From Escherichia phage HP3, in the sequence record NC_041919.1: DNA of 64,000 nt; one strand, 5' to 3'. A program made the translations under genes and the position numbers. This document shows positions 3,384-56,620 of the stretch, piece after piece; the stretch's first letter is position 1; every line of letters begins with the position of its first letter. The notes beneath the pieces are model-generated. The model was not told the DNA's origin. It worked only from the letters and a program-made list of their open reading frames with translations, and ran no database searches.

Positions 3384-3592
3384 ATATACATTATCCACAT
3401 CCATATGACCCAAAGAATAAGGCAGTAATTATTCGTCAATGGGAACGCATTTGCCGTACTAAATGTCCAATTAATAGTCCGCATGATGTAGATAAAGACT
3501 ACATTGGAACATTCGTTGAATATACCTTTATTGATAAGAAAGGTCGTAAACAGCATGTAGAAGAATACTGCTTAAAGGTTACATGGTTATGA
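3365..3592 (+). CDS. hypothetical protein (75 aa)
   Basis: Track ORF overlapping neighbours by a few codons. Confidence 0.45.
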   Translation: MGTVIMNIHYPHPYDPKNKAVIIRQWERICRTKCPINSPHDVDKDYIGTFVEYTFIDKKGRKQHVEEYCLKVTWL

Positions 3593-3795
3593 GCCAAACT
3601 AGTATTCTTAAAAATGCCCATTGTGAAAAGTGTAAATGGCCAGTTGTTTTTGCTTTATGCAACGATGAAATGGCTTGTGATTTCGATTATTGGTGCTATT
3701 GTTCTAATAAAGGATGCATCAATCATAAAGGTGAAGGATTTTATTCGGGATTTTATCCTTATCCAGATTTCGTTAAAGAAGGTAAACCGAAATGA
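3583..3795 (+). CDS. Cys-rich small protein (70 aa)
   Basis: Nine Cys incl. CEKCKW..CNDEMACDFDYWCYCSNKGC; possible metal-binding. Confidence 0.45.
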   Translation: MVMSQTSILKNAHCEKCKWPVVFALCNDEMACDFDYWCYCSNKGCINHKGEGFYSGFYPYPDFVKEGKPK

Positions 3796-3965
3796 ATAGT
3801 TTTGAGTTACAGTATGAAGTGTTACGTGAGCTTGATAATTTAATTGAACTCGCTGTCAATAAAGGTTTTGCCATTGGAATCGGTCAAAAAGATACTGGTC
3901 ATTTAACTATGGAAATATTTAAGCAAAAGCGAATTATTTTAAAACTCCTGGAAATTAATATATGA
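3792..3965 (+). CDS. hypothetical small protein (57 aa)
   Basis: ATG 3792 to TGA 3963-3965 read from sequence; below track size cut-off; fills gap and overlaps neighbours. Confidence 0.35.
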   Translation: MNSFELQYEVLRELDNLIELAVNKGFAIGIGQKDTGHLTMEIFKQKRIILKLLEINI

Positions 3966-4147
3966 GTCTGAGTAAAGAACAAAAAGATAAATTGTTTGAG
4001 CTTATCCATGAACTTCTAGATGAGCATACAGAAGCAAACACCTTTTATGATGAATACGGCCCGCTATCTCCCGAACAGCAAGAAGAATTTGCTGATCGGT
4101 TTGATAAGAAAGAAAACGAATTAATAGCTTATGTGAATATGCTTTAA
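3962..4147 (+). CDS. hypothetical protein (61 aa)
   Basis: Track ORF; acidic. Confidence 0.5.
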   Translation: MSLSKEQKDKLFELIHELLDEHTEANTFYDEYGPLSPEQQEEFADRFDKKENELIAYVNML

Positions 4148-4993: not shown

Positions 4994-5005
4994 TAGGAGG
5001 CCTTT

Positions 5006-5299
5006 ATGGCCTTAAAAGCAACGGCACTATTTGCCATGCTAGGATTAGCGTTTGCTTTATCTCCACCAATTGAAGCGAATGTCGATCCTCATTTTGATAA
5101 ATTTATGGAATCTGGTATTAGGCACGTTTATATGCTTTTTGAAAATAAAAGCGTAGAATCGTCTGAACAATTCTATAGTTTTATGAGAACGACCTATAAA
5201 AATGACCCGTGCTCTTCTGATTTTGAATGTATAGAGCGAGGCGCGGAGATGGCACAATCATACGCTAGAATTATGAACATTAAATTGGAGACTGAATGA
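5006..5299 (+). CDS. rI: RI lysis-inhibition regulator-like periplasmic protein (97 aa)
   Basis: 97 aa with signal-anchor MALKATALFAMLGLAFALSPP; size/position as T4 rI between tk and nrdC block. Confidence 0.75.
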   Translation: MALKATALFAMLGLAFALSPPIEANVDPHFDKFMESGIRHVYMLFENKSVESSEQFYSFMRTTYKNDPCSSDFECIERGAEMAQSYARIMNIKLETE

Positions 5300-5682
5300 A
5301 ATTCAGCGACTTTTCACAAAGTGGAAAACCTTCAAAGGCAGATGAATACTTAGGTTTATTAATGGCTGCACAAGCTTATTTTCATTCTGCGCATTTTGAA
5401 ACTAAAAGTTATGCTAGACACAAAGCATACGATTTTATTTTCTCTGAGTTGCCAGATTTGATTGATAAATTTGGTGAGCAATATTTGGGGTATTCTGGTA
5501 GAAAATACACGCCTTCTATTCCAGATGCCAGTAAACTTCCTACCGACACAATTAAAATGATTGATCGCATACTAGACCAATCTAACAGCATTTATAAAGA
5601 AATGCCTCCAGCCATTCAAAGCACGATAGATGATATTACTGGGATGTTTTACCAGAGTAAATATCTTCTTTCCCTCGAATAA
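5296..5682 (+). CDS. hypothetical protein (128 aa)
   Basis: Track ORF, ATGA overlap with rI. Confidence 0.6.
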
Positions 5683-5686
5683 CATT

Positions 5687-5709
5687 AGTCTCCTTCGGGA
5701 GACTTTTTT
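5687..5709 (+). terminator. rho-independent terminator (UUCG tetraloop hairpin + T-run)
   Basis: AGTCTCC-TTCG-GGAGACT followed by TTTTTT. Confidence 0.8.
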
Positions 5710-5719
5710 CATTTTACCG

Positions 5720-5749
5720 GTTTACTTTCCATTTGAGCTGTGATACTAT
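5720..5749 (+). promoter_or_regulatory. T4-type early promoter
   Basis: GTTTAC 5720-5725, TACTAT 5744-5749. Confidence 0.55.
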
Positions 5750-5777
5750 ACAACTATCGGATAAAGAGGAGAACATC

Positions 5778-5966
5778 ATGAAAATTGAAGCACTTAATCA
5801 AGAAGGAAATATCTACGTCATCATTAATGGTGATTTTTTCGTCGACATGGATGAAGTTACTAGTGAAGAACTTGTAGAACTTCTTAAGAAACGTTATGAT
5901 ATGTGTGATGAAGCTGCAACTCATATGGCGTGTGCAATATTCTCTCTTTCATATGTGGTGGAATAA
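5778..5966 (+). CDS. hypothetical protein (62 aa)
   Basis: ATG 5778 after AAGAGGAG SD; track ORF 5733-5966 trimmed. Confidence 0.5.
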
Positions 5967-6169
5967 TGACTAGAATTGAACAAGCAGATAAAATTAAAGA
6001 ATTGGTAGCTTTAATTCGCAAAGCAGATGAGGAACTTAGTGACTTTGCTTGGTTTTCGGCAGGCATTGCAAATAAAGGTATTGAAAAATTTGAAGCTAAA
6101 GTTGATAATGCTTTAGAAGCGTTAGATATGTTTCTTGATGAAATTATCGATCATAATACGAGAGTTTAA
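5966..6169 (+). CDS. hypothetical protein (67 aa)
   Basis: ATG 5966 overlapping upstream stop; track ORF trimmed. Confidence 0.5.
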   Translation: MTRIEQADKIKELVALIRKADEELSDFAWFSAGIANKGIEKFEAKVDNALEALDMFLDEIIDHNTRV

Positions 6170-6171
6170 TT

Positions 6172-6366
6172 ATGCTAACACGTGAACAGTTTGAAAAAAT
6201 CATTAAATTAGCACGTGATATTGAAATAGATTCATACCAATTAGCAGTTGAGCATTGTGAAGGATATTCATACGACGGTATAGAAGCAGCTAAAAAGGAT
6301 TTGGATAAATCCAAAGCTAAGTTAGTTCAATATCTTGAAATGATTAGGTGGAATAATGAAAACTGA
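6172..6366 (+). CDS. hypothetical protein (64 aa)
   Basis: Track ORF. Confidence 0.5.
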   Translation: MLTREQFEKIIKLARDIEIDSYQLAVEHCEGYSYDGIEAAKKDLDKSKAKLVQYLEMIRWNNEN

Positions 6367-6529
6367 AAAGCAGATGTTTTTAATGAAGCTAATTGAAGAA
6401 TATGCTAATGCAGTTTCTGACTATGAGTATTCTGCTCGGGAAAGAGGTACAGCTTTCGCAAAGGAAGAAATGAAAATCATGGTTGATGCTCACACAAAGC
6501 TTCAGAATTTTATTGAAAACGTCATTTAA
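6356..6529 (+). CDS. hypothetical small protein (57 aa)
   Basis: ATG 6356 to TAA 6527-6529 read from sequence; below track cut-off. Confidence 0.35.
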   Translation: MKTEKQMFLMKLIEEYANAVSDYEYSARERGTAFAKEEMKIMVDAHTKLQNFIENVI

Positions 6530-6531
6530 TG

Positions 6532-6573
6532 GTTTACAAGTTGACAAGATTATGATATAGTAATCTTGTCAAC
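6532..6573 (+). promoter_or_regulatory. early promoter embedded in 13-bp perfect inverted repeat
   Basis: GTTTAC 6532-6537, TATAGT 6556-6561; arms GTTGACAAGATTA 6540-6552 / TAATCTTGTCAAC 6561-6573. Confidence 0.6.
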
Positions 6574-6696
6574 TGCCAAGGAGAAGAGAATGAAAGTTTT
6601 GTTTGTTGTGTATGTGATGATTCAATATAATTATCCAATGTTTACTTATAATCTGGTGAACAACATTATTGATATTATTCAAAGGAGTATGTAATT

Positions 6697-7254
6697 GTGG
6701 GTGAGTCGAAGAGAATCAATATGAAACGATTAGTATTAGAAGTTAGTCCGCTTTTTGGTGAATTAGCTATAGAAAAAGTAAATAATATGTATCGTTTGAC
6801 ACAAGAAGACGATATGCTATATTTTACGCCTAGTGAAATCATTCATTTAACCCAAATTGAATATCCTTATACTGATAAAATAGTAAGCATCAATGATGAG
6901 CACAAAATTCATTTTTATTCTTCATGCCCAGGATTTAATATTAAAAGTGAGTCAATGTGTTTATCAGTTATCCATTGGGATAGCTTTATAGCTAAGATTA
7001 AATATTTTTATTATTCTAATGAAAGAAAACATAGTTTAAAATGGCTCAAAAATTGCAATGCTATTATTACTAACGCTTGCAATCAGAATGATGAAACTGT
7101 TTTAAACGTATCAAAATGCTATGAAGATGGTGATGTCTTAACTATTCGTCAAATTGATGATTTTCGATCGTATATTGTCACATTTACCAAAGACGAAGCT
7201 ATTGCGCTAAAGACTTATCTCGATTCTGTCATTCCAACTATGATTTCAAAGTGA
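6697..7254 (+). CDS. hypothetical protein, paralog A1 (185 aa)
   Basis: GTG start with AAGGAG SD 9 nt upstream; C-terminus aligns with next ORF. Confidence 0.6.
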   Translation: MGESKRINMKRLVLEVSPLFGELAIEKVNNMYRLTQEDDMLYFTPSEIIHLTQIEYPYTDKIVSINDEHKIHFYSSCPGFNIKSESMCLSVIHWDSFIAKIKYFYYSNERKHSLKWLKNCNAIITNACNQNDETVLNVSKCYEDGDVLTIRQIDDFRSYIVTFTKDEAIALKTYLDSVIPTMISK

Positions 7255-7260
7255 GGAAAT

Positions 7261-7782
7261 ATGTTTATTTCAAGTGGAAGTGGTTTAATTCGTGTTGAAT
7301 TTAAAAATGACATCTTCCTTATTCAAGGAGATGATATTATTAAAATGAGTTATGATGAAATTAAGAAAATTTGTAATGCTCTTGAAAGTCATGGAAAAGT
7401 GAACGCTGTTATTGATATTGGTGATTTATGGGTGACACTTTATGAAGTATCCGAAGGATTTAATATTGAAGATGAAAACAACATCTTAGCTATTGATAAA
7501 AGAAGCGATTTGTTTGATGTGTTAAAAGTTTATGAACAGTCAAACGGTGGAAGAAAAGCTGTATTGATTTATCAAAAACCACATTCATGTGGAACTGCTT
7601 CAATCATTTCAGATATTGAAGATGAAACTGATACTTATATGTGTGTTTTAAAAGCTGGTGGTGACCGTCATCCGGATTTTATTTCTATTCGTCAAAACAA
7701 TGAAGAAATTTCATTATCAAAATCAGAAGCTGAAGCTATGATTAAGTATTTAACAACTGTTACACCTTCAATGAAAGGATAA
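7261..7782 (+). CDS. hypothetical protein, paralog A2 (173 aa)
   Basis: C-terminal EAEAMIKYLTTVTPSM vs A1 EAIALKTYLDSVIPTM. Confidence 0.6.
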   Translation: MFISSGSGLIRVEFKNDIFLIQGDDIIKMSYDEIKKICNALESHGKVNAVIDIGDLWVTLYEVSEGFNIEDENNILAIDKRSDLFDVLKVYEQSNGGRKAVLIYQKPHSCGTASIISDIEDETDTYMCVLKAGGDRHPDFISIRQNNEEISLSKSEAEAMIKYLTTVTPSMKG

Positions 7783-7784
7783 TT

Positions 7785-8246
7785 ATGATTATTAATGAAA
7801 ACTCTTGGCACTATAAATTATTCAAATTGTTTAACGATGAATGGCAACGACCTAAGACGCTGTGCGCATACTTTTGGTCTATTGTTATCCCTACATTTTT
7901 CGTTTCTTTTTTCGGATGTACTATACTCGTAGGTCTAACTATCATCTGCGCAGAAATCATACAGAAATGGCTTATTTTTGGTAGTTTATGGACTCTTATT
8001 CCATCAGCATTTATACTTGCCATTTTGCTTGTTTTACTTATTGTCGGTTCATTTGTTATTCCTGCACAACTGCGTGAAAAATATAAAGATTATAAATGGA
8101 AAAAGGATTATGCTTTACACGTAGAAAATATTGATAGGGCGTATAAAGGTTTACCTCCTATTCAACCCAAGAAATCGATTATCGTTGAATTTTTAAAAGC
8201 TCGTAAAGCTAAAGTATGTCCTGTTATTGAATATAAGGCTGAATGA
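7785..8246 (+). CDS. multi-pass membrane protein (153 aa)
   Basis: Two long hydrophobic segments FWSIVIPTFFVSFFGCTILVGLTIICAEI and LWTLIPSAFILAILLVLLIVGSFVI. Confidence 0.6.
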   Translation: MIINENSWHYKLFKLFNDEWQRPKTLCAYFWSIVIPTFFVSFFGCTILVGLTIICAEIIQKWLIFGSLWTLIPSAFILAILLVLLIVGSFVIPAQLREKYKDYKWKKDYALHVENIDRAYKGLPPIQPKKSIIVEFLKARKAKVCPVIEYKAE

Positions 8247-9256
8247 TGAAAACAGTAATGAAAAGCTATTTTGGTAGTCATCTTTATGGAACTTCTACCC
8301 CAGAATCTGATGTAGATTTTAAAGAAATCTTTGTTCCTCCTGCTCGTGATATTCTTATCGGAAATGTTAAAGAGCACATGAGTAAAAACACTAACAACAC
8401 ATCATCTAAAAACACTAAAGATGATATTGACCATGAACTATACAGTCTTAAATATTTCTTTAAATTAGCAGCAGATGGTGAAACTGTAGCGTTAGATATG
8501 CTTCACACTCCACCTGAACTAGTGGTTAAATCTGATTTGCCTGATGTGTGGAAGTTTATTCAAGACAACCGTTCTCGTTTTTATACGACTAACATGAAAT
8601 CCTATTTAGGATATGTCCGTAAGCAAGCTTCTAAATACGGCGTTAAGGGTTCTCGTTTGGCTGCATTACGTGATGTATTGAAAGTAGTTAATCAAATCCC
8701 TGAGCAATGGGTTGATTACCAAGAAGATGGTTCTATTAAGCAGCGTCGTACTAAAGTTGAAGATATTAAGCATCGTCTTCCAGAAAACGAATTCTGTGAA
8801 TGGGTGTTCCATAATCATGAGAAAACAGGCCCACAGACGTTCTACACAGTGTTGGGTCGTAAATATCAGACAACGCTTTCTCTTATTGAGCTTAAGCAGT
8901 CACTGAACAAATTAGATGCTGAATACGGTGAACGTGCTCGTAAGGCCGAAGCCAATGAAGGTATTGACTGGAAAGCTATGAGTCATGCTTGCCGTGGTGG
9001 ACTCCAACTATTGGAAATTTACAAAACTGGTGACTTGGTTTATCCACTCCAAGATGCTCCATTTATTCTCGACGTGAAGTTGGGTAAACATCCATTTAAA
9101 ACGGTTCAAGAGTTTTTGGAAGATGTGGTCGATCAAGTAGAAGCAGCATCTACTGAAGCTTCTAAGAACGGTATGCAGCAAAAAGTAGACATGGGTTTTT
9201 GGGATGACTTCCTTGAGAGGGTTTATCTTGAAAACCACCGAAGTTATTATAAATGA
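8243..9256 (+). CDS. nucleotidyltransferase-fold protein (337 aa)
   Basis: N-terminal FGSHLYGTSTPESDVDF fits the pol-beta-type G[GS]x9-13 DxD motif, third acidic residue in VALDML; ATGA overlap with upstream gene. Confidence 0.6.
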   Translation: MMKTVMKSYFGSHLYGTSTPESDVDFKEIFVPPARDILIGNVKEHMSKNTNNTSSKNTKDDIDHELYSLKYFFKLAADGETVALDMLHTPPELVVKSDLPDVWKFIQDNRSRFYTTNMKSYLGYVRKQASKYGVKGSRLAALRDVLKVVNQIPEQWVDYQEDGSIKQRRTKVEDIKHRLPENEFCEWVFHNHEKTGPQTFYTVLGRKYQTTLSLIELKQSLNKLDAEYGERARKAEANEGIDWKAMSHACRGGLQLLEIYKTGDLVYPLQDAPFILDVKLGKHPFKTVQEFLEDVVDQVEAASTEASKNGMQQKVDMGFWDDFLERVYLENHRSYYK

Positions 9257-9258
9257 TA

Positions 9259-9283
9259 GGGAGCCTTCGGGCTCCCTTTTTTT
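9259..9283 (+). terminator. rho-independent terminator
   Basis: GGGAGCC-TTCG-GGCTCCC + TTTTTTT. Confidence 0.85.
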
Positions 9284-9307
9284 ATTTCAAAAATTTTTCA
9301 CAAAATT

Positions 9308-9337
9308 GTTTACAAGCATAAAGCTTTATGGTACTAT
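9308..9337 (+). promoter_or_regulatory. T4-type early promoter with conserved leader
   Basis: GTTTAC 9308-9313, TACTAT 9332-9337; leader nearly identical to the one at 36377-36446. Confidence 0.6.
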
Positions 9338-9371
9338 ACAACTATCAACTGATACGGATTTGGAGAATAAA

Positions 9372-10340
9372 ATGAAAACTGTAACTATCAATAAGGGTAT
9401 CTACTTCGGTAAAGAAATCTCTGGAACTTTTGAGCTCTTAGGTGAATGGTTCCCAGATAATGCTCCGGTAGATGCACAAGGAGATGGTAAAGTTTTTGTT
9501 GAAATTGACGGTAAGCGTCGCGGTGTTTGGGTTTACAAATCAGACATTTCATATGATGGTGTAAAAGTTGAAGAAGTTAAAGAATCGTATGAAGATATGA
9601 AAACCCGCATTAATAAAAGATTTAATGTTATGGGAATGATGACGAATGGTATTATTAACGGAAACATTCGTTCATTAATTATCTCTGGTGCGGCGGGTAT
9701 TGGTAAAACGTATTCTTTAGATAAAGCTTTAAATAAAGCAAATGATATTGGATACATTGAATATAAAAGCATTAATGGTAAAATCTCTGGTATTGGTCTT
9801 TATGAGCAGCTTTGGAATAATCGTGAAGAGAATTCTGTACTTTTGATTGATGATGTGGATGTTTTCTCTGATATGGACATTCTTAATCTTCTGAAAGCTG
9901 CTCTGGACACCGGAGAGACCCGCAAAGTCTGCTGGAGCACTGCATCTTCTTACTTAGAAGAAAAAGGCATTGAGCGTGAGTTTGAATTTAAAGGAACGAT
10001 TGTTTTTATCACAAACGTTGACATTGACCGCGAATTAGACCGTGGTACTAAACTTGCTCCACATTTACAAGCATTAGTTTCCCGCTCGGTTTATTTAGAT
10101 TTGGGTGTTCACACTAATGAAGAAATTATGGTCAGGGTTGAAGATGTTATTCTTTCAACTGACATGATGCAAAAACGCGGTCTTTCTGATGAAGAAACTT
10201 ATAAAGCATTATCATGGATGAAAGTCAATGTTAATCGTTTACGCAATGTTTCACTGCGTACTGCACTTTATCTTGCTGACTTTATTATGACCGACAAAAA
10301 CGGTTGGGAAGAAATCGCTGAGGTTACTCTTCTGAAATAA
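9372..10340 (+). CDS. P-loop NTPase / AAA-like ATPase (322 aa)
   Basis: Walker A SGAAGIGKT, Walker B VLLIDDVD; ATG 9372 after GGAG SD; track ORF 9204-10340 trimmed. Confidence 0.7.
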   Translation: MKTVTINKGIYFGKEISGTFELLGEWFPDNAPVDAQGDGKVFVEIDGKRRGVWVYKSDISYDGVKVEEVKESYEDMKTRINKRFNVMGMMTNGIINGNIRSLIISGAAGIGKTYSLDKALNKANDIGYIEYKSINGKISGIGLYEQLWNNREENSVLLIDDVDVFSDMDILNLLKAALDTGETRKVCWSTASSYLEEKGIEREFEFKGTIVFITNVDIDRELDRGTKLAPHLQALVSRSVYLDLGVHTNEEIMVRVEDVILSTDMMQKRGLSDEETYKALSWMKVNVNRLRNVSLRTALYLADFIMTDKNGWEEIAEVTLLK

Positions 10341-10441
10341 TTCATAAGAGGCCTTCTATGACAAAAAGGCAGTTCAGAAATAGATTATATGGACTGCCAT
10401 CAAAAAGATGATTAGAATTAAACTGGTAAATGGAGGTAGTG

Positions 10442-10744
10442 ATGTTATACTCAAAGGCTCGTGAAATTTACGAAACTAAAATTAAAGACGCGGTTCATCA
10501 GTTCGCAACGACAATGCGTTGGACAAATGACTGGGAATACTCCAAGAATCATAAGAAGCCCTTGGTGACAAGAAAGGCTCATATGTTAGTGTTAATAGAC
10601 CGTGAGCAGATTAAAGCCCGAGAAGCCCTCCAGAATCATAAAAAGGCTGCCTTTGAATGGTTTATGGATAACACTGCTCCTGAGACTAAGAAAGCGGTAA
10701 GCGCATGGTTCAGTGGAAAAAATTGTGAAAGAAGTTTCTTTTAG
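10442..10744 (+). CDS. hypothetical protein (100 aa)
   Basis: ATG 10442 after GGAGG SD; track ORF trimmed. Confidence 0.5.
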   Translation: MLYSKAREIYETKIKDAVHQFATTMRWTNDWEYSKNHKKPLVTRKAHMLVLIDREQIKAREALQNHKKAAFEWFMDNTAPETKKAVSAWFSGKNCERSFF

Positions 10745-10746
10745 TG

Positions 10747-10776
10747 GTTTACAAGACTGTTCCTCTGTGGTACTAT
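10747..10776 (+). promoter_or_regulatory. T4-type early promoter
   Basis: GTTTAC 10747-10752, TACTAT 10771-10776; shares TGGTACTATACAACTATCAACTAC leader motif. Confidence 0.6.
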
Positions 10777-10804
10777 ACAACTATCAACTACGGAGGAACA
10801 CAAA

Positions 10805-11332
10805 ATGAACGCTAAAGATATTTTCAACCTGGTAAATTACAACGATGGTAAATTTAAATCTGAAGCACAAAGCAAGTTCTTTAATGACATCTCAATCGGA
10901 GGTGAAATCACGGTTGACGGAGGACAAATTTACAAATCTCGTTGGAATTGGATCGTTATTATCGATGAGATTGGTATTGTAGAAATTTACAAGAATACGA
11001 ATAAAAATCGTACATTACACTGGTCTCGTGATACTAACGAACAGTACAAAAAGGATAAAGCATCTAAATTATCTCGTGTAACTCAAGAAGATATTGAGTT
11101 CATCAAGAAAGATATTTTGATGTATGATAACTTAATTGCTGAAGAGCAAGCTGTTATTGATAAATTTGATGAGATTAAAGCTTCTCGTGAAATTCCTGAT
11201 TTTATGAAAGAATCAGTAAATGAACGATACACTCTCATTTCAGAGCGTATTGAAACTTACAAAAAGCAAAGAGCTGAACGCCAAAATACTCTTCGGAAGT
11301 TTGAAGAACGGTTAAAGACGGTACTCGCATAA
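10805..11332 (+). CDS. hypothetical protein (175 aa)
   Basis: Track ORF with GGAGG SD. Confidence 0.6.
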   Translation: MNAKDIFNLVNYNDGKFKSEAQSKFFNDISIGGEITVDGGQIYKSRWNWIVIIDEIGIVEIYKNTNKNRTLHWSRDTNEQYKKDKASKLSRVTQEDIEFIKKDILMYDNLIAEEQAVIDKFDEIKASREIPDFMKESVNERYTLISERIETYKKQRAERQNTLRKFEERLKTVLA

Positions 11333-11387
11333 CCGCTTTATACCAAGGATGGTATAATGGTTCTAAGCCCTTTTAATTGAGATTATT

Positions 11388-11795
11388 ATGAAACAGTTGA
11401 TAATTAAAAGATTGAATTTATTGATATGTTGTTTATGTGTAGTAGTTGCATATGGTTATTACGCAATTAATGATTATATGCATTATAAAGATTATGATGT
11501 TACTGTAGTTAATACCTTTACAGGAACTCAAGGAAAGGGGTCTAGTTTATCGTTTATTGCTGTATATGAACTCAAAGACGGTTATAGATTTAGCGAATAT
11601 ATTTCACCAGAGATGTATTCATCAATAGAAAAAGGCGATAATATTACTGTAAGTTTACGTCCTTTCGACGTAAAACAGACATTGTTTGATAATATTGTTT
11701 GGTTCTTTGGAATGGTATTAGTTCAATCTGTGTGTGGTGCTTATATAGTCTGTTCCATCTTATTCTGTATATTTAGTAAAATTGAAATTGAGTGA
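11388..11795 (+). CDS. membrane protein (135 aa)
   Basis: Hydrophobic N- and C-terminal segments. Confidence 0.5.
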   Translation: MKQLIIKRLNLLICCLCVVVAYGYYAINDYMHYKDYDVTVVNTFTGTQGKGSSLSFIAVYELKDGYRFSEYISPEMYSSIEKGDNITVSLRPFDVKQTLFDNIVWFFGMVLVQSVCGAYIVCSILFCIFSKIEIE

Positions 11796-47233: not shown

Positions 47234-47372
47234 GAGCATTTGGTTCTGATGGATATAATATTAGAGCTCATTGGAAGTTTAATGCTCCAGCCGATTATTC
47301 TCCGGTAATTATTAACGGTGATGTTGTTATATTAACTAAAATTGGGTATTTTAACGTTCCGCAAGAATTTAT

Positions 47373-47380
47373 TATAAATA
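47373..47380 (+). promoter_or_regulatory. T4 late promoter TATAAATA for soc
   Basis: Exact TATAAATA about 30 nt upstream of soc ATG. Confidence 0.7.
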
Positions 47381-47409
47381 GTCATGTAATTTAAATAAAG
47401 GAGAATTAC

Positions 47410-47655
47410 ATGACTAGTACTCGCGGTTATGTTAATATTAAAACATTTGAGCAAAAATTAGATGGAAATAAGAAAATTGAAGGAAAGGAAATTTCTGTAG
47501 CTTTCCCTCTTTATTCTGACGTTCACAAAATTTCTGGCGCTCATTATCAGATATTCCCTTCAGAAAAAGCAGCATATTCTACAGTATATGAAGAAAATCA
47601 ACGTACTGAATGGATTACTGCAAACGAAGATTTGTGGAAAGTAACTGGTGAATAA
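47410..47655 (+). CDS. soc: small outer capsid protein Soc (81 aa)
   Basis: TSTRGYVNIKTFEQKLDGNKKIEGKEISVAFPLYSDVHKISGAHYQ matches T4 Soc as I recall it. Confidence 0.93.
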   Translation: MTSTRGYVNIKTFEQKLDGNKKIEGKEISVAFPLYSDVHKISGAHYQIFPSEKAAYSTVYEENQRTEWITANEDLWKVTGE

Positions 47656-56471: not shown

Positions 56472-56510
56472 CTATATACATCAGTAGTTGATTATGGTAC
56501 TATATCAATA
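56472..56510 (+). promoter_or_regulatory. promoter-stem-loop element (11-bp inverted repeat around a -10)
   Basis: CAGTAGTTGAT 56472-56482 / ATCAACTACTG 56500-56510 flanking TACTAT 56488-56493; -35 degenerate. Confidence 0.45.
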
Positions 56511-56620
56511 TCAACTACTGATACAGAAAACAACTTGGAGAATAAAATGGATAATTCGTTAAAGGTGCGCTGATACTCTTCTGAAACGCATCGCTCCAAT
56601 GTTCAATTAATGAGGAAATT

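Follow-up and report, generated by a model that had tools for sequence, protein, structure and literature searches.

In phage T4, cleaved tRNA is repaired by the PseT kinase/phosphatase and RNA ligase 1 (Rnl1), a pathway which acts against the anticodon nuclease PrrC, and nucleotide-excising anticodon nucleases of the RloC type have been proposed to defeat this classical kinase/ligase repair. The RlaP family of nucleotidyltransferases (NTases) has been characterised with two Pseudomonas enzymes encoded in RtcB operons, PfRlaP and PaRlaP, which add one or two nucleoside monophosphates to the 3'-OH ends of RNA, work best with Mn2+ and leave DNA and protein unmodified (bioRxiv 10.64898/2025.12.29.696909, December 2025). 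On a mimic of cleaved tRNA, RlaP favours the end at the broken anticodon loop over the acceptor 3' end; it partly restores the aminoacylation of a tRNA that is short of one nucleotide, and is proposed in the same preprint to be an antidote to nucleotide-excising ribotoxins such as RloC. T4 NrdC.11 is listed there as a viral RlaP of cluster 5 with unknown function (bioRxiv 10.64898/2025.12.29.696909). In the crystal structure of PfRlaP a cleft is formed by an N-terminal NTase domain and a helical C-terminal domain, and the last helix packs back.

The region described here lies at positions 6532-10340 of a 64,000-nucleotide stretch of Escherichia phage HP3 DNA (NC_041919.1), the whole of which is referred to as the window. 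It encodes an orthologue of T4 NrdC.11 together with the small protein MobD.2, two paralogous proteins of the MobD.1/y05I family (A1 and A2), a membrane protein with two transmembrane segments (the TM protein) and the ATPase-like protein NrdC.10. These elements are of known kinds, namely NrdC.11/RlaP, the MobD.1 family and the promoter-early stem-loop (PeSL) cassettes of T4-type phages, and the region is a mosaic of independently evolving cassettes that are merely co-transcribed, not one immunity-like operon. By analogy with the assayed RlaP enzymes, NrdC.11 most likely extends damaged 3' ends of RNA by 1-2 nucleotides in a template-independent manner and as part of phage RNA repair, although both the RNA substrate and the repair role are ones that we infer. 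Co-transcribed independent cassettes with NrdC.11 in RNA repair are the best explanation of the region, and one to which about an even chance is given.

Positions 6400-10500 of the window were compared with phage genomes and with the annotated T4 genome. This stretch is 100% identical to Escherichia phages HP3.1 and HP3.2 (Tequatrovirus) and matches several hundred T-even phages at 95-99% identity. Its T4 counterpart consists of mobD.2, mobD.1, nrdC.11 and nrdC.10 in the same gene order, with mobD occupying the place of A2 and the TM gene; a first-pass annotation, made from the letters of the window, had correctly pointed to the nrdC.x/mobD region of T4. Every gene from mobD.2 to nrdC.10 is carried by the early-transcribed (+) strand, and the region would be part of the hyperplastic, non-essential early region of T-even phages. 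The T4 fragment from nrdC.11 to mobD.3 can be deleted while the phage stays viable (PMC9825161), which fits a conditional, host-dependent role.

NrdC.11 and its relation to the RlaP enzymes

NrdC.11 is encoded at 8243-9256, where its start overlaps the stop codon of the TM gene, and shares about 99% identity with the protein of the T2 type. It matches the Pfam model of RlaP (PF10127) with 44.3 bits against a cut-off of 23 (E 2.4e-11), and PF10127 is found in all 240 of the NrdC.11 homologues listed. The first-pass annotation had read a Pol-beta-type signature with the pattern GSx9-ESDVD; the type and the intact catalytic residues stand, but the spacing is x8, the motif being G11 S12 x8 E21 S22 D23 V24 D25. 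None of G11, S12, D23, D25 and D63, the third acidic residue, varies among 69 homologues with identities as low as 31%, and all of them are positioned on the expected strands of the structural model, so that the hG[GS] motif and the three acidic residues of Pol-beta enzymes are all present. Judged by these active-site residues, NrdC.11 is predicted to be a catalytically intact Pol-beta NTase.

In the AlphaFold model of NrdC.11, built from the alignment of 69 sequences (pLDDT 87), a Pol-beta NTase domain at the N-terminus is followed by a long C-terminal part of extended helices, the last of which spans residues 317-336; residues 155-209 form a small beta-rich insert. The C-terminal half contains a series of invariant lysine, arginine and histidine residues (K131, K135, R138, R206, R231, K244, H248, R251 and K279), which fit a polyanion-binding cleft. 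Like members of the RlaP family such as PfRlaP of Pseudomonas fluorescens, NrdC.11 has the Gly-Ser pair and three aspartates of Pol-beta enzymes, and its modelled succession of an NTase domain and a helical domain may correspond to theirs. Unlike the assayed RlaPs it belongs to cluster 5, is about 337 residues long, carries the beta-rich insert and has no RNA ligase gene adjoining. Sequence and profile searches of the PDB with the NTase, the y05I proteins and NrdC.10 gave no significant match, and sequence comparison finds no solved structure related to NrdC.11. In a fold search with the NrdC.11 model the nearest solved structures are HalB, 3c18, KNTase and MNT. Compared with viral models, it aligns for most of its length with NTases from numerous giant viruses and large phages.

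Among distant relatives of nrdC.11, an AAA_33 kinase gene adjoins the NrdC.11-like gene in L016 (5492-6001) and L017 (6229-6693) and lies 3.7 kb away from it in L014. The kinase domain of T4 PseT is an AAA_33 domain (E 5e-23), and the L016 kinase matches the PHROG family 'polynucleotide kinase' (E 8e-13). A gene for an HD_4 phosphohydrolase overlaps the NTase gene in L012/L013 (7378-8004; Novosphingobium contig), and a ProQ-C-like gene is located directly upstream of the NTase in eight Slopekvirus-like loci (L061-L071, about 3576-4004). No universal partner was found among the neighbours of the distant NrdC.11-like genes, and the recurrent annotated ones are all RNA-end-related, which gives modest support to an RNA substrate of NrdC.11. 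Proteins of 324-363 residues encoded near distant NTases were considered as RNA ligases and obtained no Pfam or PHROG support for such a role.

Independent cassettes and the y05I-TM pair

The gene calls and coordinates of the first-pass annotation were confirmed with small corrections. Its list of four tightly spaced genes was incomplete, as the 34-residue ORF mobD.2 (6590-6694; phrog_3515, E 6.5e-22; annotated as MobD.2 in T4 and fFiEco06) is located between the promoter and A1. A1 (6697-7254), the orthologue of MobD.1 (Y05I), begins with GTG, and an alternative ATG start at 6721 is chosen in some annotations. It is followed by A2 (7261-7782) and the TM gene (7785-8246). The tight gaps and the 4-nt ATGA overlap, which lies between the TM and NTase genes, are as described, but the gaps measure 6 nt (A1-A2) and 2 nt (A2-TM) and not 3-7 nt.

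A1 and A2 had rightly been recognised as paralogues. BLASTP aligns them with 27% identity over 176 residues (E 2e-8), and both consist of the Pfam domains T4_y05I_N (PF24449) and T4_y05I_C (PF24448) at scores well over the cut-offs (A1: 132.5 bits, E 9e-39 and 73.9 bits, E 1.4e-20; A2: 119.6 bits, E 1e-34 and 83.3 bits, E 1.6e-23). A1 is 85% identical to T4 MobD.1, and A2 is present at 90% identity or more in about 430 phage records. The y05I family is confined to T-even-type phages, where it forms 50 clusters at 90% identity, and has 28 representatives in 1.84 billion proteins; because the family is so tiny, neither domain fusions nor bacterial context are informative. The AlphaFold 2 model of A2, computed from 19 sequences, reached a pLDDT of 55, a quality insufficient for fold searching. 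Pfam labels the family a 'putative transcription factor'. The metagenomic protein P0142 is a natural chimera of an A1 N-domain and an A2 C-domain, which implies deletion by recombination between the two paralogues.

The genes of the block, described in the first-pass annotation as a tight operon, do not travel as one conserved four-gene module. The neighbourhood of NrdC.11 relatives was followed in 78 loci from IMG/VR, covering 99% to 40% identity, which were searched with the window proteins. The TM and NTase genes adjoin each other in only 13 of the 43 loci with a TM gene upstream of the NTase; in the others they are separated by 0.4-2.6 kb that contain further ORFs. No y05I gene lies within 4 kb of an NTase gene whose product is about 60% identical or less, and nearly all of these NTases are also without TM and NrdC.10 genes. 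T4 is devoid of A2 and the TM gene, and homology between the window and T4 stops at 7279 and restarts at 8242. T4 keeps, however, the A2 start codon and the first six codons (MFISSG) upstream of mobD (L001 13210-13283, minus strand, corresponding to 7261-7279 of the window), and this remnant therefore indicates that the homing endonuclease replaced A2 and the TM gene. The T4-type state with mobD is found in about 47 records and is about nine times rarer than the state with A2.

The TM protein is 153 residues long and belongs to phrog_944 (E 1.4e-49), a family that is found in 928 phage records and is broader than the y05I family. It had been described as a multi-pass membrane protein; a membrane protein it is, and hydropathy gives its precise form as a hairpin of two hydrophobic segments, at about residues 27-58 and 62-93, with a basic C-terminal tail. 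The alignment of the family contains the invariant residues S7, H9, C27, Y29, K143 and C145 and the motifs SWH near the N-terminus, LCxYFW before the first transmembrane segment and KxCP near the C-terminus. The invariant residues are located on the predicted cytoplasmic N- and C-terminal segments and may form a small metal-binding site. Identity with Saf_2TM was rejected, as 1 of 18 homologues matches that model, with 19.9 bits against a cut-off of 29.5, and the match is hydrophobic noise.

In 35 of these 43 loci the gene that immediately precedes the TM gene is one of the y05I family. This adjacency spans several genera of the Tevenvirinae (loci L018-L091), with the order reversed in L091, and outside the Tequatro-, Mosig- and Dhakaviruses the y05I partner is a protein of 65-87 residues with the C-terminal domain alone (PF24448, E 1e-20 to 1e-25). 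The y05I and TM genes look like a conserved two-gene unit, and their pairing is the one new, modest regularity to come from the analysis; their products would constitute a phage-specific soluble-plus-membrane pair. A fusion of the two in L045 and L057 was considered and discarded, the N-terminal extension of the TM protein in these loci being unrelated to y05I (hhalign probability 0.1). The synteny counts identify y05I-TM as the robust association and leave the NTase and NrdC.10 as separate cassettes.

A proposed role in RNA repair and competing explanations

An early transcript started by the PeSL promoter at 6532-6589 would encode the micro-ORF mobD.2, the two MobD.1/y05I-family proteins and their conserved 2-TM partner, and NrdC.11 would be translationally coupled to the TM gene. 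The likeliest target of NrdC.11 would be tRNA halves that are short of a nucleotide after the action of a RloC-type anticodon nuclease. The phage polynucleotide kinase and RNA ligase, which are unlinked, could then reseal full-length tRNA; in HP3.1, Pnk and Rnl1 are encoded about 88 kb from nrdC.11. Such a pathway would resemble the PseT/Rnl1 repair of T4 in that the proposed substrate is cleaved tRNA in the same phages, and the distant NrdC.11 genes adjoin genes for PseT-like kinases. It would differ in that NrdC.11 supplies the missing nucleotide, a step which is absent from the classical pathway and is proposed by analogy. Counter-defence is the best guess at the role of the NTase. That NrdC.11 is specifically the phage answer to RloC-type nucleases, restoring the nucleotide prior to ligation, and that the y05I C-domain and the 2-TM protein form a hitherto unrecognised, phage-specific membrane module of two components which is coupled to the NTase in some T-even lineages, is put forward as a tentative and rather doubtful extension.

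Several observations weigh against repair as the role of NrdC.11. The match to the RlaP model spans profile positions 23-142 of 249 only, and thus its N-terminal half, and the activity attributed to NrdC.11 is that of other enzymes of the family, from which it would have to carry over to a different similarity cluster. Kinase, HD and ProQ-like neighbours are each found in particular clades only, with AAA_33 accounting for 3 of 114 non-redundant neighbour clusters. In T-even phages nrdC.11 adjoins no RNA ligase or kinase gene, and Pfam and PHROG searches of the present locus found no RNA ligase or end-healing gene. HalB, which comes closest among solved structures, is an NTase partnered by a membrane channel, and a role in repair does not account for the tight translational coupling of the TM and NTase genes in Tequatro-, Mosig- and Dhakaviruses. 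In addition, the extension of RNA by 1-2 nucleotides could serve other purposes, for example host shut-off or RNA marking. The corresponding alternative is a host take-over enzyme or toxin which, through nucleotides added at their 3' ends, inactivates intact host tRNAs, or other RNAs, in a MenT-like manner or marks them for decay. It is rather improbable, as in the tRNA mimic RlaP prefers the broken end of the anticodon loop to the acceptor end, as distant phages have end-healing enzymes and not toxins as the neighbours (a PNK-like kinase and HD), and as no antitoxin-like partner is conserved. The restriction of the Pfam match to half of the model would also suit an acceptor other than RNA, be it a small molecule, a nucleotide or a protein as for enzymes of the KNTase/ANT type, and the fold neighbours of NrdC.11 do include aminoglycoside and lincosamide NTases; the region would then be without a common theme. 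Since the assayed RlaP enzymes modified neither protein nor DNA, and the many invariant basic residues of the C-terminal half are compatible with a polyanion cleft, this explanation is considered unlikely while retaining some weight.

Two further alternatives connect the NTase with the membrane protein through nucleotide signals. HalB, the top fold neighbour of NrdC.11, belongs to the host defence system Hailong, and short oligonucleotides made by NrdC.11 might gate the upstream membrane protein or mimic the HalB product and keep the host HalA channel closed. HalB (PDB 9dbh/9dbj) is a protein of about 217 residues that makes oligodeoxyadenylate, and its match to NrdC.11 concerns the generic NTase core only (120 of 337 residues, 17% identity), with KNTase and 3c18 nearly equal. 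Moreover, the adjacency of NTase and TM gene is not conserved, as seen from the 13 loci above, from all distant phages, in which the NTase occurs without a TM gene, and from T4, which has NrdC.11 but no TM gene; in view of this and of the blank PADLOC result described below, a Hailong-like or anti-Hailong function is very unlikely. The first-pass annotation, which assigned no function, had likened the architecture to immunity or anti-immunity modules such as the cyclic oligonucleotide-based antiphage signalling system (CBASS) or minimal NTase toxin systems. In a CBASS-like system the NTase would make a nucleotide signal, A1 and A2 would be HORMA-like sensors, the TM protein the effector and NrdC.10 a TRIP13-like regulator; alternatively, such signalling would be counteracted. 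What speaks for a CBASS-like or other nucleotide signalling or anti-signalling system is the architectural resemblance of an NTase, a membrane protein, two paralogues and an ATPase, and a chance-level PDB match of A1 to the HORMA protein HOP1 (E 0.78). The likeness to type III CBASS (CD-NTase, HORMA, TRIP13 and effector) is however limited to the number and kinds of genes, which is superficial. A PADLOC scan of the six region proteins gave zero matches at E <= 1, including to CD-NTase, HORMA and TRIP13-type models, so that none of the four components has a profile signal, and an NCBIfam search returned noise only. Pfam assigns NrdC.11 to RlaP and to no CD-NTase family, and in the fold search suggested by the annotation KNTase/HalB-type NTases lead, with the best CD-NTase match at a Foldseek E of 0.46 and a probability of 0.08. 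Saf_2TM is found, under its cut-off, in the single TM homologue mentioned above, and the genes separate freely in evolution, T4 being without A2 and the TM protein. Full-length T4 homologues with housekeeping roles had been named as grounds against an immunity function; MobD.1, NrdC.11 and NrdC.10 have full-length homologues in T4, but none of these has a known housekeeping role. The CBASS-like explanation is largely refuted and hardly credible.

Promoter/stem-loop cassettes and the NrdC.10 unit

Arbiol et al. (2010) and Comeau et al. (2014) have described PeSLs as cassettes of T4-type phages that combine an early promoter with a stem-loop (PMC2839356, PMC4122927). They consist of a sigma-70-like early promoter (TTTACW-N17-TAYWAT in T4/PST), which is followed by a Shine-Dalgarno (SD) sequence and a start codon, and of a stem-loop located upstream of the promoter, between its boxes or overlapping the -10 (PMC2839356). 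The layout at 6532-6589 on the + strand matches that described by Arbiol et al. 2010 (PMC2839356), as seen in a promoter scan, an inverted-repeat search and RNA folding. The promoter reads TTTACA-17-TATAGT with an upstream TG (6533-6561), and comprises a (G)TTTACA -35 at 6532-6538 and the -10 TATAGT at 6556-6561, with the SD sequence GGAG at 6579-6582. The first-pass annotation had called this promoter unusual and placed its -10 inside a perfect 13-bp palindrome. The palindrome is indeed perfect and holds the -10, which sits in its 8-nt loop (6553-6560), but the arms are 14 nt long (6539-6552 and 6561-6574), and the element is of a described type. As RNA it folds with -20.2 kcal/mol (z = -7.9), and its sequence occurs as a single copy within the window. 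An Rfam scan of 5000-11500 returned a single sub-threshold match to the L20 leader and nothing else.

The stem arms of T4 are the same as those of the window; in phage F2 and in the L027 contig the arms differ in sequence and keep the geometry and type of loop; L029 contains a third version of the arms, and further versions are found in other phages. Among five homologous sequences 5 of the 14 stem pairs are altered on both sides, two more have G.U intermediates, and 97% of the cells pair across the 14 positions. Such covariation fits a hairpin under selection, in RNA or in a single strand, better than an operator bound by a protein. The possibility of an operator for y05I 'transcription factors' was considered since symmetric half-site changes can mimic covariation, and is disfavoured as two variants hold G.U-type intermediates and as the same hairpin around a -10 is seen at an unrelated promoter of the window (56480-56522) and has been published as PeSL.

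The cassettes of the region are like other PeSLs in their early promoters, in a stable stem-loop that lies upstream of the -10 or overlaps it, in the SD and ATG at the 3' end, in their position in a hyperplastic region and in their association with insertions and deletions. The stem at 6539-6574 has no U-tract, and its role would by analogy be that of an attenuator. The stem-loop would arise only in RNA that is read through from upstream, the setting in which PeSL stems serve as attenuators, while transcripts from the embedded promoter would start within the right arm and form no stem. PeSLs are not present at both junctions of the exchange between A2 plus the TM gene and mobD.

Two other hairpins of the window have related layouts. 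At 56480-56522 the -10 (TGGTACTAT) of the second promoter is in the loop of an inverted repeat with 20-nt arms, and an SD sequence and an ATG (56547) come after it. A perfect 13-nt inverted repeat at 47371-47416 contains an SD sequence in its loop and a start codon in its right arm; it is located just past the late-promoter-like TATAAATA, and its ORF starts MTSTRGYVNIKTFEQKL. This repeat is presumably the known soc regulatory hairpin of T4.

A second cassette on the + strand, at 9258-9371, separates the NTase gene from nrdC.10 and consists of a terminator, a promoter and the SD and ATG of nrdC.10, as found by promoter and terminator scans and RNA folding. Both the strong terminator after the NTase (9258-9277 plus T-run, -16.2 kcal/mol) and the separate promoter of the ATPase (TTTACA-17-TACTAT, 9309-9337) had been noted in the first-pass annotation and hold. 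Like the promoter at 6533-6561, that at 9309-9337 agrees with the PeSL consensus, and SD and ATG are visible in the sequence. Relatives such as fFiEco06 have an insertion of about 480 bp exactly at this position (L002 5975-6384), which contains two small ORFs, including a DUF4031 one. The cassette at 9258-9371 is of the classical PeSL form and an indel hotspot.

NrdC.10 (9372-10340, 322 residues; phrog_1250, E 1.3e-166) would follow as a separate, PeSL-bounded unit encoding an AAA+-like P-loop ATPase, and its ORF is nested in a longer mechanical ORF that begins at 9204. It contains a Walker A motif (GAAGIGKT, residue 106) and a Walker B motif (VLLIDD, residue 156). All Pfam AAA matches are sub-threshold, the best being AAA_14 with 23.5 bits against 27, and the NrdC.10 profile gives a weak match to Cdc6 only in the PDB (E 0.25). 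NrdC.10 is 65-79% identical across Tevenvirinae and Acinetobacter phages, as compared to about 52-69% for NrdC.11 across the same phages, and this higher conservation suggests a constrained role.

The mosaic nature of the region saves effort on the testing of CBASS-like functions and singles out the pair of y05I C-domain and 2-TM protein as an unstudied unit. If NrdC.11 does repair tRNAs that are short of a nucleotide, it would be a third RNA-repair activity of T-even phages besides Pnk and RNA ligase, and would close a gap in the arms race between phages and anticodon nucleases, namely how the phages cope with enzymes of the RloC type.

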